A stretch of DNA of 64,000 nucleotides from Rhizobiaceae bacterium (lineage in GTDB: Bacteria; Pseudomonadota; Alphaproteobacteria; Rhizobiales; Rhizobiaceae), in NCBI GenBank assembly GCA_965250255.1, contig CBDFNP010000009.1, forward strand, positions 127,722 through 191,721. Reading direction: 5' to 3'. The notes below the pieces were generated by a model, which was not told where the DNA came from, did no database searches, and was given only the letters and a program-made list of their open reading frames with translations. Positions 52,171 through 56,073 of this stretch are shown piece after piece. How positions within the stretch are numbered: position 1 is the stretch's first letter; every line of letters begins with the position of its first letter. The translations under genes were made by a program, and so were the position numbers.

Positions 52171-54269
52171 TTCGCTAAATTTGAGCGCAAAATGCAGAAT
52201 TGCTAGGGATGCGACCAGTGAACTCGATCATTTCGGGTTGTTCCGTCTTCGTGTATGTATGTGGTGGGTGTGCTATCTAGGATCTGGATTGAAGAAGCGA
52301 TCTGATAATATAACTAACGCTGGCGGAATTTAAGCTTTCGGTGGCTATCTCTGATTTTGTTAGTATTGGTATTAAAAAGATTGGGATTAATGCGCGGATT
52401 GGAAAGATTAAAAACATTAACCCTCACATCCCCACCGGGCAAGCGGTCCCATGTCAAAAAGTGAGGGTGAATGACCTTTTCGTGGTTTAGATTATCGATT
52501 TCTGACCGTATTTTTGAAAGTTGTTGCGCAGATGTTAACCCCTGTCCGCCAAAGAAAAACGATTTCACTGGAATTGCGTCTGTATTGGAGGATAAGGCAT
52601 TAATTAACGGAATAAAGGCATTACTAAAATCTGCATGTACTCTTTTTGTTTCTTCGGAAAAACTTTTCCAGAAAGGTGTCTTAAGGTTCTGGGACGATTG
52701 AATGATGTTGTTGACTTGTTCCTTTAGGCCCTCTTTATCTTTTGCTACCACGTTCGGCTTAACTGTTTTACCTGCAAGTACTCCGTAGCCGAGCGTACCA
52801 TGTAAATTTCCTAAAATGGTGGCAGTGTCTGCCAGGTTATTTTTCCAGTCTCTTTGCCCAGCGTCAAGGGCATCGACGGCTGACAAATAGCTGTCTTCAT
52901 CAAGTGCACGCTGAATTGAGAGCTTTTGAGCGGGTGTACGCGAGCCTTCAGGTATTTTCTGTAAGATTTTCAACTTAGCGGTTCTACTTGCAGGACTTTG
53001 AATTTGTAAAACATCTATTTTTCGTTTTGCGATTGTCGCAGTATTTTTAAGCTTGGAAAATGCTTTTAGTGATGATCCCATAGCGGAAAAAGCAGAGGCT
53101 CCGCCTGCTAGTAAAGAAAGACCAGAAGTTATTAAGTTTACCATGTTGAGTATTTTTTCAATGTTTTCCTTTTTCTTTATACCTTTAATTGTACTTTTAT
53201 GGATATTCATCGCACTGATTGATTGTTTCATCAGATCACGCGCATTGGTGTCGATGAGTTTACCCACATCAAACATAGCCTGAGTTCCCAAACTCCTGAT
53301 GCCAAGAGCTCGAAGATCCGAACTTTGAAACAACAATTCAGGATTGACCCCGGCTTGAAGGCCTTTAAAAACGGTCTGCACATAATTATCAGATTGGAAC
53401 ATCAAATCGGTAAACGCCGATACGTGTCGAATTGCCTGGTCCGTGAAAATTGTCGATGCGTCGGCAGAGCTGATGGAAGTGAGTGCCGAGATTAAATTTG
53501 AATTCTTGGCGGCTCTGAATGAATCTACAAGTCTGGTCAATGAACGGCCAACTCCCTGGGTCAGGTTGTTCCGTTTTGTCTCAACCGCCCTAAATACTCT
53601 TTCGACATATCTTGCATCTACATTCCCGCTTCTCAGTAATTTTCCTATCTTCTTTGATTCTACTACATCTCTTTCTGCCGTTGTACTGAGCAGGTGATCG
53701 TCAGTAATTTTTTCCCAGGCGTCGACTAGTCCATCCTTCAATTTGAAATTAAACTTGAATCCGATTTTGCCGTTTTCGCGAATGGCTGTTACCGAACGCA
53801 CCTCCGGTATTTCCAATTCAGGATCAATCCATTTTCCAATCCCGTTCGAATCTTCAGATTGCAAACTGTCGACCTTCACGTATGGTTTCAGCTCGTTTTC
53901 ACCTCTCCTAACTGCAAAATAAGCTTCTTTGGTGATTGTAAAAGAGAAATCTGGGAGTGCCGGGTTTTCGACTGTGATGGTAAAATCTTTAGCAGAAGAC
54001 GATGCGGGCGCCAGTGGGATGTCATCCGGCAGCCAAACTATTCCATCGGTTATGTCAATTCCACGTCCATCGGCGAGTCTCCTCCCGACTTGATCGCCTT
54101 TGCCATCACGGACTTCAACGATCGCATTTTCTCCAACCGCGGTACCTGATAGTGTCGAAGCTACCCCTACCCTTGGAATTGGGAGAAAATCTACTTTTAT
54201 CTTGTGAACGCCATTTACGACTTCTACTGAAGCCTCTAATTGTTGGTGTCCTTGGTAGCCATCTTCTAA

Positions 54270-55201
54270 GAGTCTGACTCGAAACTAATTGTGTAATTTC
54301 AATCTCTTGCGATCCGCCTTGTTATCATCCTGATGTGAGCAATGAGGAGCCAACTTTCTGCTGAGAGGATGGATTTCTCCCAATCCTTTGCCAATCTGCG
54401 ACATCTACCGAGCCATGCGAAGGTGCGCTCGACTACCCATCGGCGTGGAATGACTTCGAAACCTTTTGCCTTGTCGGAACGCTTGACAATCTCCATTGTC
54501 CAGCATCCGATTTTCTCCAGCTTGCCTCGCAGTTTTGGTCCCGCGTAACCACCATCGGCAAATACATGGCGTAGCCACGGGTGTGTGCGGCGGATTGAAT
54601 TGAGCACATGAACGGCCCCGTCGCGGTCTTGAATATCAGCAGTATGAATGACAAATCCAATCAGGAAACCAATGGTATCGGTGATGATATGACGTTTGCG
54701 ACCCTTGATCTTCTTCCCTGCGTCATAGCCGCAAACCCCGCCACTTTCCGTTGTTTTAACGGACTGACTGTCAATTACTCCGGCGCTTGGCGAGGCTTCT
54801 CGACCTTCTTGTTCTCGCGCTACCATGACCAGAGCATGGTTGATCTGATGCAGTATTCCATTGTCGCGCCAGTAGTAAAAATAACGCTGCACTGTAGAAG
54901 GTGGCGGGAAGTCATTAGGGATCATCTTCCACTGGCAACCGGTTGAGGCCATATACTGGATCGCATCCCAAACATCGCGCATTTGCGTCGTGCGCGGGCG
55001 GCCTATAGGTTTTTCTGGTGGAAGAAACGGCTCAATCAAATGCCATTCTTTATCGCTGCAATCACTTGAATAGCGACCAGTTTTGCGCTCATATTGTAGG
55101 CGGGTGATATCAGTCCAGACCATTGTGTTCTCCTTCGAATCGTAAACAATCCGATTGAATCACAAATTACTGATATCACTCAATTACTTTCGAGTTGGAC
55201 A
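54270..55201 (-). mobile_element. IS5-family insertion sequence (932 bp)
   Basis: Imperfect terminal repeats GAGTCTGACTCGAAACTAATTG / CAATTACTTTCGAGTTGGACA. CTAA is duplicated at 54266-54269 and 55202-55205. Confidence 0.8.
54299..55123 (-). CDS. IS5-family DDE transposase
   Basis: 274 aa. ...GRPRTTQMRDVWDAIQYMASTGCQWKMIP...IDSQSVKTTE...ADGGYAG...WVVERTFAWL... are typical IS5-family motifs. Confidence 0.9.
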   Translation of the reverse strand: MVWTDITRLQYERKTGRYSSDCSDKEWHLIEPFLPPEKPIGRPRTTQMRDVWDAIQYMASTGCQWKMIPNDFPPPSTVQRYFYYWRDNGILHQINHALVMVAREQEGREASPSAGVIDSQSVKTTESGGVCGYDAGKKIKGRKRHIITDTIGFLIGFVIHTADIQDRDGAVHVLNSIRRTHPWLRHVFADGGYAGPKLRGKLEKIGCWTMEIVKRSDKAKGFEVIPRRWVVERTFAWLGRCRRLAKDWEKSILSAESWLLIAHIRMITRRIARD

Positions 55202-55546
55202 CTAAGGCAATTTGCTGGGTGTCGTAATTGTATATTAATGTGGCATCTATAGTTTTATCTCCTTGCCTAATCGGATCAATGTGTATATTGATCCATTTCT
55301 CGGATACGTCCGGTTTCAGGGTAGTGTCGATGGTAAGGTGGCCATCTCTGACGCCATCTTTATCCGGCCTGACAAGCTGACTAAATCCCGCTCTTTCATC
55401 TAAAATAGTTTCCTCCCTTTCTCCATCGAAAACATATTCCAGATAACCTATATTACGAATACTTCGAATCATTGCATACGCGCCCGGTCGCAGCAGAGTG
55501 CCGGAAATTTCGGTAGTAATCGTGCGGTCAGAATGAGCAGAGGTCT

Positions 55547-55642
55547 GGCCAGCAGCAGAGGTCTGGCCAGCAGCAGAGGTCTGGCCAGCAGCAGCAGGGT
55601 TCTGGCCAGCAGCAGTAGAGGTCTGGTCAGCAGTAGAGTCAG
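55547..55642 (-). repeat. in-frame 18-bp tandem repeat (GCAGAGGTCTGGCCAGCA x3 plus two degenerate 21-bp units) encoding (AAGQTS)n
   Basis: Read directly. A second 12-bp repeat (GTACCTGATGAT, ~2.5 copies, 55734-55768) encodes (GTSS)n. Confidence 0.85.
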
Positions 55643-56073
55643 CACTTCTTCTTCTTCTTTCCCTCGCAGCGTGTTCTGCGAATGATCTTCTGCCCTCCGC
55701 CGTGCTGCCCCCGTCTGGTTGGCTGGATGGTAGTGTACCTGATGATGTACCTGATGATGTACCTGGAGCCTGCATATTATTCATCCCTTCATTTGGATTT
55801 GTAAAATCAGATGAAAAACACTTCCCTTTGTGAATTCATAAAACTGATTGTTTGTTTACGATTCCTCTTTGTCTATGTACCTTCCCCGTTACCAGCCGCG
55901 TAGAGTTTGATTATTGGTTCTATCTTGAAAGATCGGCAAATATTCATGAAGAATTTGCACAGTACTTTCAGTATATTTCTGACTAAATGCCTTGTTACGG
56001 CGGGTATTAATAGCTATTTATTTTATATATTACACAATAACATCATTAACTTATTGTATAATATATAATTTTT

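Follow-up and report, generated by a model that had tools for sequence, protein, structure and literature searches.

The window analysed here, a 64-kb stretch of DNA, contains purine-catabolism, serine-cycle and transporter genes, and Rfam and tRNA scans of it were empty. The host is a serine-cycle methylotroph-like marine alphaproteobacterium. Just after mtkB, the minus strand carries two ORFs, 52314-53879 and 55176-55784, with an IS5-family insertion sequence (IS) between them. The features of this region are listed in Table 1.

Table 1. Features of the split gene, the insertion sequences and their target sites (positions in the window)
Feature	Position	Strand	Remarks
Split gene, 3' part	52314..54269	-	codons 194-844 plus stop at 52314-52316
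Gly/Ala/Ser-rich hydrophobic segment	53067..53144	-	about aa 569-594 (MVNLITSGLSLLAGGASAFSAMGSSL); in a predicted helix of ~54 residues
Target-site duplication TAA, other side	54267..54269		TTA (Leu), codon 194 after reconstruction
IS5-family insertion sequence, IS1031-like type	54270..55202	-	933 bp; single transposase ORF; same orientation as split gene
Terminal inverted repeat, other end	54270..54291		GAGTCTGACTCGAAACTAATTG
DDE transposase gene	54299..55123	-	intact, 274 aa; Pfam, NCBIfam
Terminal inverted repeat, transposase-start side	55181..55202		GTGTCCAACTCGAAAGTAATTG on minus strand
Target-site duplication TAA, gene 5' side	55203..55205		read as TTA (Leu) by the truncated ORF
Split gene, 5' part	55206..55784	-	codons 1-193; ATG at 55784
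18-bp tandem repeat	55536..55638	-	about 5 copies, in frame, (AAGQTS)n; Tandem Repeats Finder
12-bp tandem repeat	55734..55765	-	2.7 copies, in frame, (GTSS)n; Tandem Repeats Finder
Second IS, IS1595/ISXO2 family	56074..57124	+	1051 bp; 8-bp duplication TAATTTTT at 56066-56073 and 57125-57132

The initial annotation had proposed that the IS5-family element splits a single orphan gene some 844 codons long, and the excision frame, the coding tests and the mapping of the IS ends all agree with this proposal. Recomputed excision of positions 54270-55205 (936 bp) fused the two minus-strand ORFs into a single ORF of 844 codons plus stop, the TTA codons of the duplicated target being in frame with their respective ORFs as had been claimed. 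The length of the excised segment is the same under either duplication length discussed below (933 + 3 = 932 + 4 = 936 bp). The ORF 55176-55784 ends with ...QQIAL VSNSKVIE*, and both its final eight codons (55179-55202) and its TGA stop (55176-55178) are indeed sequence of the IS terminal repeat. The truncated product has 202 aa: codons 1-193 supply its native part, the duplicated codon adds a Leu and the IS contributes the last eight residues. On the other side of the element, ORF 52314-53879 can be extended in frame by another 130 codons without meeting a stop (53880-54269), and recomputation, like the initial reading, found no ATG, GTG or TTG among them (0/130). This leaves a stranded 3' part of 651 codons, the first 130 of which offer no possible start. 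Based on the local base composition, the chance of finding 130 codons open is ~4e-4, that of finding no start-like codon in 130 is ~0.004, and that of finding 844 codons open is ~1e-22. Regarding the start of the gene, an alternative ATG at 55775 has a better spacing to a Shine-Dalgarno-like motif, GAAGGG, than the ATG at 55784.

Codon usage was analysed as log-odds along the reconstructed frame. The first 84 codons, which are of low complexity, gave no coding signal in this test. Over aa 85-193 the gene's own frame scored 0.16, and every other frame scored below zero. A check of codon usage in the start-less stretch had been suggested by the initial annotation; this stretch (aa 194-323) scored 0.143 in frame, which is host-like (host genes, 0.138 +/- 0.031), and negative in the other five frames. 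The remainder (aa 324-844) scored 0.067 in frame, below the lowest host gene (0.081), and all other frames of the 3' part scored -0.17 or lower. Thus, excision restores a frame with coding character on both sides of the junction (0.16 and 0.143), and both halves are free of frameshifts and stops. We conclude that the locus contains one gene of 844 codons, cut at codon 194 by an IS insertion. Since the truncated product has 202 aa and the 651-codon remainder begins without a start, this gene is a pseudogene made by the insertion. Judging from this one sequence, the gene would have been a single unit before the element arrived; neither an uninterrupted allele nor an unoccupied site turned up, the collections searched containing no close relative of the host. 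The annotation can be corrected accordingly: what public collections list as a 521-aa 'protein' is the tail, lacking a start codon, of the 844-codon pseudogene.

The ends of the IS were mapped by comparison with loci L081-L084 and L089. Its 22-bp terminal inverted repeats are imperfect, with 18/22 identical positions as counted by eye. The transposase matches Pfam PF01609 (DDE_Tnp_1; 4.9e-37) and PF13340 (DUF4096, N-terminal; 4.9e-25), and belongs to NCBIfam NF033580, IS5-family transposase (259 bits vs a cut-off of 110). CTAA had been reported on both sides of the element, and both copies are present (54266-54269 and 55202-55205); the true duplication, however, is the 3-bp TAA of a C-TNA-G target. 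Four other copies or relatives were compared (see L082, L084 and L089), and these place C55202 at the terminus of the IS and outside the duplication. Thus, the copy at L089 reads C-TAA / IS / TAA-G, that at L082 has TAA on both sides with a first IS base other than G, and at L084 two IS copies are separated by TAA alone. The IS5-family element inserted itself at codon 194, in a C-TAA-G site (+ strand), and duplicated the TAA. The exact transposase protein is recorded on five contigs in NCBI/ENA, a 97% relative is present in a JGI metagenome, and the copy of the IS at L089, which occupies a different site in an unrelated metagenome contig, is 99.8% identical. The insertion is probably recent, given that the two gene halves still read through in the same register, that the TAA copies match perfectly and that the transposase gene is undamaged, and also because identical transposases occur on five contigs and a 99.8% identical IS copy occurs in the unrelated contig.

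The split gene differs from its surroundings in composition: its GC content is 44.6% vs 49.7% for the window, and its GC3 is 0.38-0.41 vs about 0.46-0.53 in those host genes that were checked. Its position coincides exactly with the end of synteny with relatives. Synteny with L087 and L088 stops at about 51620, and the gene that follows mtkB differs each time in L087, L088, L090 and L091, the four closest MtkB loci among the matches listed; none of these four loci carries a relative of the split gene. The nearest of the matches listed, L090 and L091, have MtkB proteins of 92-94% aa identity, and their mtkAB genes, the neighbours of this site, are about 76-77% identical at the DNA level. The FadL-like neighbour, used as a search seed, returned only a 32% relative. 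The second IS lies 289 bp upstream of the ATG of the split gene; the intervening stretch is 31% GC and is where the promoter is expected, and a scan for promoters and terminators gave nothing above the shuffled expectation. We considered whether IS1595-family copies at 44776-45826 and 56074-57124 form a composite transposon. This was rejected, as their 8-bp duplications differ and the two copies are therefore independent insertions. The low GC and GC3, the end of synteny after mtkB and the second IS upstream of the start indicate that the split gene is probably lineage-specific and horizontally acquired, and that it would have been dispensable.

The reconstructed protein has a low-complexity, disordered Ser/Thr/Gly/Gln-rich N-terminus, an acidic beta-rich middle and a basic all-helical C-terminal part of ~420 residues, broadly the layout described in the initial annotation. 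Internal repeats beyond the N-terminal tandem repeats were not found. Its one hydrophobic segment is moderate, with a Kyte-Doolittle 19-residue maximum of 1.43, which in our reading falls below the level of a typical transmembrane helix. A low-confidence model predicts helices at 560-613 and 639-691, each of ~54 residues. The protein contains no cysteine in 844 residues (P about 5e-6), whereas all 42 other proteins of the window have Cys (mean 1.42%). It has no Sec-type signal peptide; the N-terminus is Ser-rich and has no acidic residue before position 24. The C-terminal tail is strongly basic: its net charge over the last 30 residues, +7, equals the maximum among 42 proteins of the window (mean -0.2).

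Neither family nor relative was found for this protein. Searches of Pfam and NCBIfam at permissive thresholds gave no match, nor did PHROGs or PDB sequences at E values up to 10, and there was likewise no relative in a word-seeded search of 5.8 billion clusters, an exhaustive phmmer search of 1.84 billion representatives, or back-translated scans of genome, metagenome and viral contigs (including IMG/VR). Plasmids and 50,697 phage genomes gave no match by tblastn. The single exception to these empty searches is a weak PADLOC match to Csm2 (E = 0.0056, 15 bits, aa 533-615), which we read as chance; the alignment is short and helical. Single-sequence AlphaFold models reached a pLDDT of 35.8 (full length) and 38.5 (aa 372-844). 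At such values a fold search is uninformative: Foldseek against the PDB with the full-length model gave a best E of 0.13 and TM <=0.13, which is noise from too poor a model. The 521-aa piece is filed in the cluster collection under an unrelated 54-aa representative, a clustering artefact that explains the missing self-match. Together these searches support the gene being an apparent orphan relative to the sampling of the host lineage, and this status partly reflects how sparse that sampling is.

The reading that we favor, with a probability of about 0.85, is the recent knockout by an IS of a single acquired, dispensable gene, to which a weak guess of export can be added. Two independent neighbouring genes, with the IS in their spacer and the continuity of frame a coincidence, would account for the pieces being separate ORFs today and for the 521-aa piece (P0241) standing as a protein of its own in public collections. 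However, this would require an upstream gene whose stop lies in the IS and a downstream gene that lacks a start throughout 130 open codons (P = 4e-4), while that start-less stretch has host-like codon usage in this frame only and the reading register is kept from one side of the 3-bp duplication to the other. We regard the two-gene explanation as close to refuted. Another possibility is that the insertion at this site is polymorphic or an effect of assembly, the contig being the IS-bearing variant in a population that also holds intact alleles. The IS exists in several copies that hardly differ from site to site, and elements of this kind are frequently polymorphic and may be put in the wrong place during assembly; yet matching duplications at both junctions, in the preferred C-TNA-G target, are the signature of a true insertion, and the 521-aa piece and MtkB share one record of 250,752 bp. 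This makes a variant or misassembled site improbable in our view.

Granting a single gene and a true insertion, the 844-codon frame may already have been non-functional when the IS arrived, as a decaying or never-functional acquired ORF, in which case the insertion had no phenotypic consequence. The absence of a homologue among the 1.84 billion representatives, the C-terminal codon score below that of any host gene, the low-complexity N-terminus, the second IS upstream of the start and the failure to find partner genes beside the split gene are all compatible with this. Nevertheless, 844 open codons are not expected by chance (1e-22), the codon bias is frame-specific throughout aa 85-844 and neither half contains a frameshift or stop, and we judge prior loss of function unlikely. 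The helical part could also belong to a phage tape-measure-like protein or to a subunit of a defence system instead of a secreted protein. Tape-measure proteins have long helices with a Gly-rich hydrophobic stretch, which the helical part resembles, and the PADLOC match points to Csm2; against this, PHROGs and the phage and IMG/VR searches were empty, phage and CRISPR genes are absent from the window, and the Csm2 match is short, helical and of 15 bits. A tape-measure or defence function is accordingly very improbable.

As to the function of the intact protein, the effector or pore-forming-toxin idea of the initial annotation is speculation, as it was labelled there. For pore-forming toxins and T3SS translocators, sequence or fold homology was absent in Pfam, NCBIfam, PDB and Foldseek, the 64-kb window contains no secretion-system, chaperone or immunity genes, and the small ORFs adjoining the split gene, where a partner, immunity or chaperone gene might be expected, have neither coding signal nor family. 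As a candidate membrane-inserting hairpin or transmembrane stretch, there is the one segment (aa 566-594) peaking at 1.43. The lack of Cys and of a Sec signal, the disordered repeat N-terminus, the helical C-terminal part with its hydrophobic segment and the basic tail are, features and not homology considered, most compatible with export of the unfolded protein by a one-step secretion system, the helical part contacting a membrane; we offer this tentatively, as a guess with well under even odds. That the gene represents a hitherto undescribed family of exported, membrane-active proteins (effector, translocator or toxin-like) in a poorly sampled lineage of marine Hyphomicrobiales, seen here for the first time and shortly after its inactivation by an active IS, is less likely still. 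If intact relatives turn up, it would become a candidate for a new family of secreted proteins, large, cysteine-free and located at a variable junction.

Substrates of one-step secretion systems are recognized by features of the kind seen here, and the reconstructed protein resembles T3SS/T4SS effectors, translocators and harpins in having no Cys, no Sec signal, a Ser-rich N-terminus, a strongly basic tail at the C-terminus and a hydrophobic stretch within a helical domain. The likeness is one of resemblance only: the protein has no sequence or fold similarity to the class, and the window contains no secretion or chaperone genes. A positively charged C-terminal tail is characteristic of VirB/D4-type T4SS substrates, and the net +7 found here is a lead only.

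The comparison is closer for the IS. IS1031-like elements measure about 0.85-0.95 kb, a range that includes the 933 bp found here. A single ORF and a three-nucleotide target are features of the IS1031 group (PMC2516522), and with single-ORF IS5 members such as ISLxx6 (PMC2516522) the element has in common a DDE_Tnp_1 plus DUF4096 transposase encoded by one ORF, terminal inverted repeats enclosing ~0.93 kb and a duplication of three nucleotides (TNA). Its transposase, in contrast, shares only ~71% identity with its best-matching relatives on plasmids, which come from Martelella, Rhizobium, Agrobacterium and Sinorhizobium. As judged from its sequence, the element is a member of the IS5 family of IS1031-like type, the subgroup being assigned by described features.

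Genes cut by an IS are a common and well-understood event in IS-rich bacterial genomes, and the locus, a clean and well-documented IS knockout of an accessory gene, matters little as such. What sets this locus apart from the usual insertional pseudogenes is that the interrupted gene is large and has no detectable family; the pattern itself, an IS flanked by an intact duplication with both gene halves still open, is the one seen in IS-rich genomes.

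Removal of positions 54270-55205, which the initial annotation had proposed to join the two ORFs flanking the IS5-family element (see Table), yielded a continuous reading frame of 844 codons and a stop upon minus-strand translation, reproducing the single ORF of about 844 codons claimed there. The C-terminus of the upstream ORF reads ...QQIAL-VSNSKVIE*, in which the Leu corresponds to the duplicated target codon; its last 8 codons (55179-55202) and TGA stop (55176-55178) are indeed located inside the terminal repeat of the IS. Above its GTG, the downstream ORF continues as an open frame for a further 130 codons, reaching 54269, and translation bore out the claim that ATG, GTG and TTG are all absent from this stretch.

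Coordinates of the features described (window positions)
Feature	Position	Strand	Size
Purine-catabolism neighbourhood	9661-26821
MITE-like element, third copy	36134-36306
IS1595/ISXO2-family element, second copy	44776-45826
Serine-cycle cluster	47794-51611
ORF	49015-49470	+	151 aa
Downstream ORF of the split gene	52314-53879	minus	521 aa, counted from the first possible start (GTG)
IS5-family element	54270-55202		933 bp
Transposase gene between the two ORFs	54299-55123	minus	274 aa
Upstream ORF of the split gene	55176-55784	minus	202 aa
IS1595/ISXO2-family element, first copy	56074-57124		1051 bp
MITE-like element, exact tandem pair	57229-57564
ORF	59550-60818	+	422 aa

With the local base composition, the probability that the 130-codon stretch is free of stops is ~4e-4 (analytical calculation and 200,000 shuffles agree), that of finding no start-like codon among 130 sense codons is ~0.004, and that of an 844-codon open frame is ~1e-22. 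Codon log-odds scores trained on 36 long ORFs from the window were 0.138 +/- 0.031 in frame for host genes. The start-less stretch (aa 194-323 of the reconstructed product) scored 0.143 in frame and -0.22 or lower in the other frames. Corresponding values were 0.16 for aa 85-193, with all other frames negative, and 0.067 for aa 324-844, with other frames at -0.17 or lower; for the low-complexity region aa 1-84 the score was uninformative in every frame. In addition, GC at codon positions 1/2/3 of the start-less stretch was 0.62/0.42/0.38, which is coding-like. The codon scores, the GC by position and the lack of a start codon thus indicate that this stretch is coding but untranslatable on its own. 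Read from the sequence, these results strongly indicate that the two pieces were formerly one gene. The observation of an IS-split gene is confirmed, and the main reading of the initial annotation, that an IS split one orphan gene, is supported, apart from the size of the target duplication (see below).

The protein had been placed in no family, and this held in all family, profile and sequence searches. No match was found in Pfam, NCBIfam or PHROGs, and the sole PADLOC match, to Csm2 (15 bits, E = 0.0056), was read as chance. No credible relative was detected among PDB sequences searched to E = 10, in a word-seeded search of 5.8 billion clusters, by exhaustive phmmer against 1.84 billion representatives, in back-translated scans of genome, metagenome and viral contigs, or by tblastn against plasmid and phage genomes. 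Since the nearest available hosts show only ~76-77% DNA identity in mtkAB, and the host lineage has about one sequenced member, absence of a homologue here means none outside that lineage. Clustering at 90% identity placed the 521-aa C-terminal ORF (P0241) with a representative to which it is unrelated, a 54-aa peptide encoded on a contig of 27% GC (P0241/P0242/P0243), which explains why the self-match is missing from searches of cluster representatives.

The low-complexity aa 1-84 contain in-frame tandem repeats of 12 bp and 18 bp. Residues ~135-370 are acidic and beta-rich, and ~372-785 basic and helical, with two predicted helices of ~54 residues each (560-613 and 639-691), the former including a Gly/Ala/Ser-rich segment (569-594). 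The Kyte-Doolittle peak of the hydrophobic segment, 1.43, is taken as too low for a classical transmembrane helix. Net charge across the last 30 residues is +7, and inspection revealed no N-terminal hydrophobic signal. Cysteine is absent, versus present in 42/42 other window proteins (mean 1.42%; P ~5e-6). AlphaFold without alignment gave a pLDDT of 35.8 for the full length and 38.5 for aa 372-844; Foldseek, a check named in the initial annotation, was run on the full-length, low-pLDDT model and returned a best E of 0.13 with TM <=0.13. The low-complexity N-terminus, the lack of signal and cysteine, the helical part and the basic tail fit criteria for one-step unfolded export with the helical part contacting membranes, although we consider such a role rather unlikely. 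No secretion system is present among the genes of the 64 kb window.

Several results bear on the origin of the split gene. It has 44.6% GC, compared with 49.7% across the window, and a GC3 of 0.38-0.41, compared with ~0.46-0.53 in host genes checked. In a translated search, similarity of the window to two relatives' mtkB loci (L087 and L088) ended directly after mtkB, at ~51620. The mtkB locus could be retrieved for four relatives (L087, L088, L090 and L091), and each had a different gene following mtkB (4/4), these genes being a PAS/GerE regulator, PEP carboxylase, a GAF-domain cyclase-like protein and a CLIPPER_2 protein; nothing resembling the split gene occurred in any of the four. As the next gene varies in every genome examined, the site after mtkB would be a recombination or insertion hotspot. 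Together, the low GC and GC3, the end of synteny and the differing next genes suggest that the split gene is foreign, and was probably acquired at a variable junction.

The serine-cycle cluster (malyl-CoA lyase-like gene, mtkA and mtkB) is kept in these four relatives; in L088 two ORFs are called for each of the lyase-like gene and mtkA, and the L090 locus is not long enough to cover the lyase-like gene. The gene adjoining MtkB is called malate-CoA ligase beta (NCBIfam), MtkB being the alpha subunit beside it. Relatives of MtkB show 92-94% identity in MAGs and 88% in Anderseniella, family Parvibaculaceae. The host is a marine alphaproteobacterium. The remaining window content comprises purine catabolism, Rieske oxygenases, ABC transporters and serine-cycle enzymes. 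The purine-catabolism neighbourhood includes xanthine dehydrogenase subunits with XdhC, a Urate_ox_N protein, an OHCU decarboxylase fusion, ureidoglycolate lyase, amidohydrolases and a Bmp/PnrA-type ABC transporter. The 422-aa and 151-aa ORFs gave no significant Pfam or NCBIfam match, and the latter has a counterpart in L088 at 52% identity.

The 8-bp duplication TAATTTTT flanks an IS1595/ISXO2-family element situated in 31% GC DNA, 289 bp upstream of the split gene's start codon (ATG). A second copy is 99.2% identical and flanked by ATACGGAA. A composite transposon formed by the two copies was ruled out because these duplications differ, which indicates independent insertions. Taken together, the split gene appears dispensable, and mobile elements have struck its locus twice. 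The window also contains a CTAG-bounded MITE-like element of ~165-169 bp with two strong stem-loops (RNA MFE -54 kcal/mol) and no Rfam match; two copies form an exact tandem pair, and a third, 99.4% identical, is located 21 kb away.

The transposase of the IS5-family element contains DDE_Tnp_1 and DUF4096 domains (Pfam) and matches NCBIfam NF033580 (IS5 family transposase) with 259 bits. The ends of the IS were set by aligning related copies from plasmid (L081, L082) and metagenome (L083, L084) records and an ENA contig (L089), which revealed imperfect inverted repeats of 22 bp beginning GAG... and GTG.... In transposase orientation, the window insertion site is C-TTA / IS / TTA-G, and that in L089 is C-TAA / IS / TAA-G. 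In L082 TAA is duplicated, yet the IS there starts with a base other than G, and TAA alone separates two copies in L084. These sites indicate that the target duplication is a 3-bp TNA inside C-TNA-G. Hence, the 4-bp CTAA duplication initially proposed is reduced to 3 bp, C55202 being the last IS base, and the 936-bp excision is unchanged. The L089 copy (ENA ERZ26222911, 2918-3859; C-TAA-G target) is 99.8% identical, lies in otherwise unrelated 46% GC DNA and adjoins two large genes without Pfam match. The L084 copies (JGI 3300003886, ~1-1250), 90% related to the IS, are arranged head to tail and resemble an IS dimer or circle junction.

The window contains one copy of the IS. The exact transposase protein occurs on five contigs (NCBI/ENA), metagenome relatives show 97% and 92% identity, and the closest plasmid-borne relatives are on Hyphomicrobiales plasmids. 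The IS is multi-copy, and the near-identity of its copies suggests that it moved recently. An active IS1031-like element has, probably recently, knocked out a gene that is specific to the lineage and was probably acquired. The knockout event is ordinary; its importance would rise only if undisrupted relatives or a confidently modelled structure assigned the protein to a secreted-protein family or established one. Within the IS5 family, members of the IS1031 group are described as having one ORF and a target of three nucleotides (PMC2516522), and the window IS likewise has a single ORF and a 3-bp target duplication.
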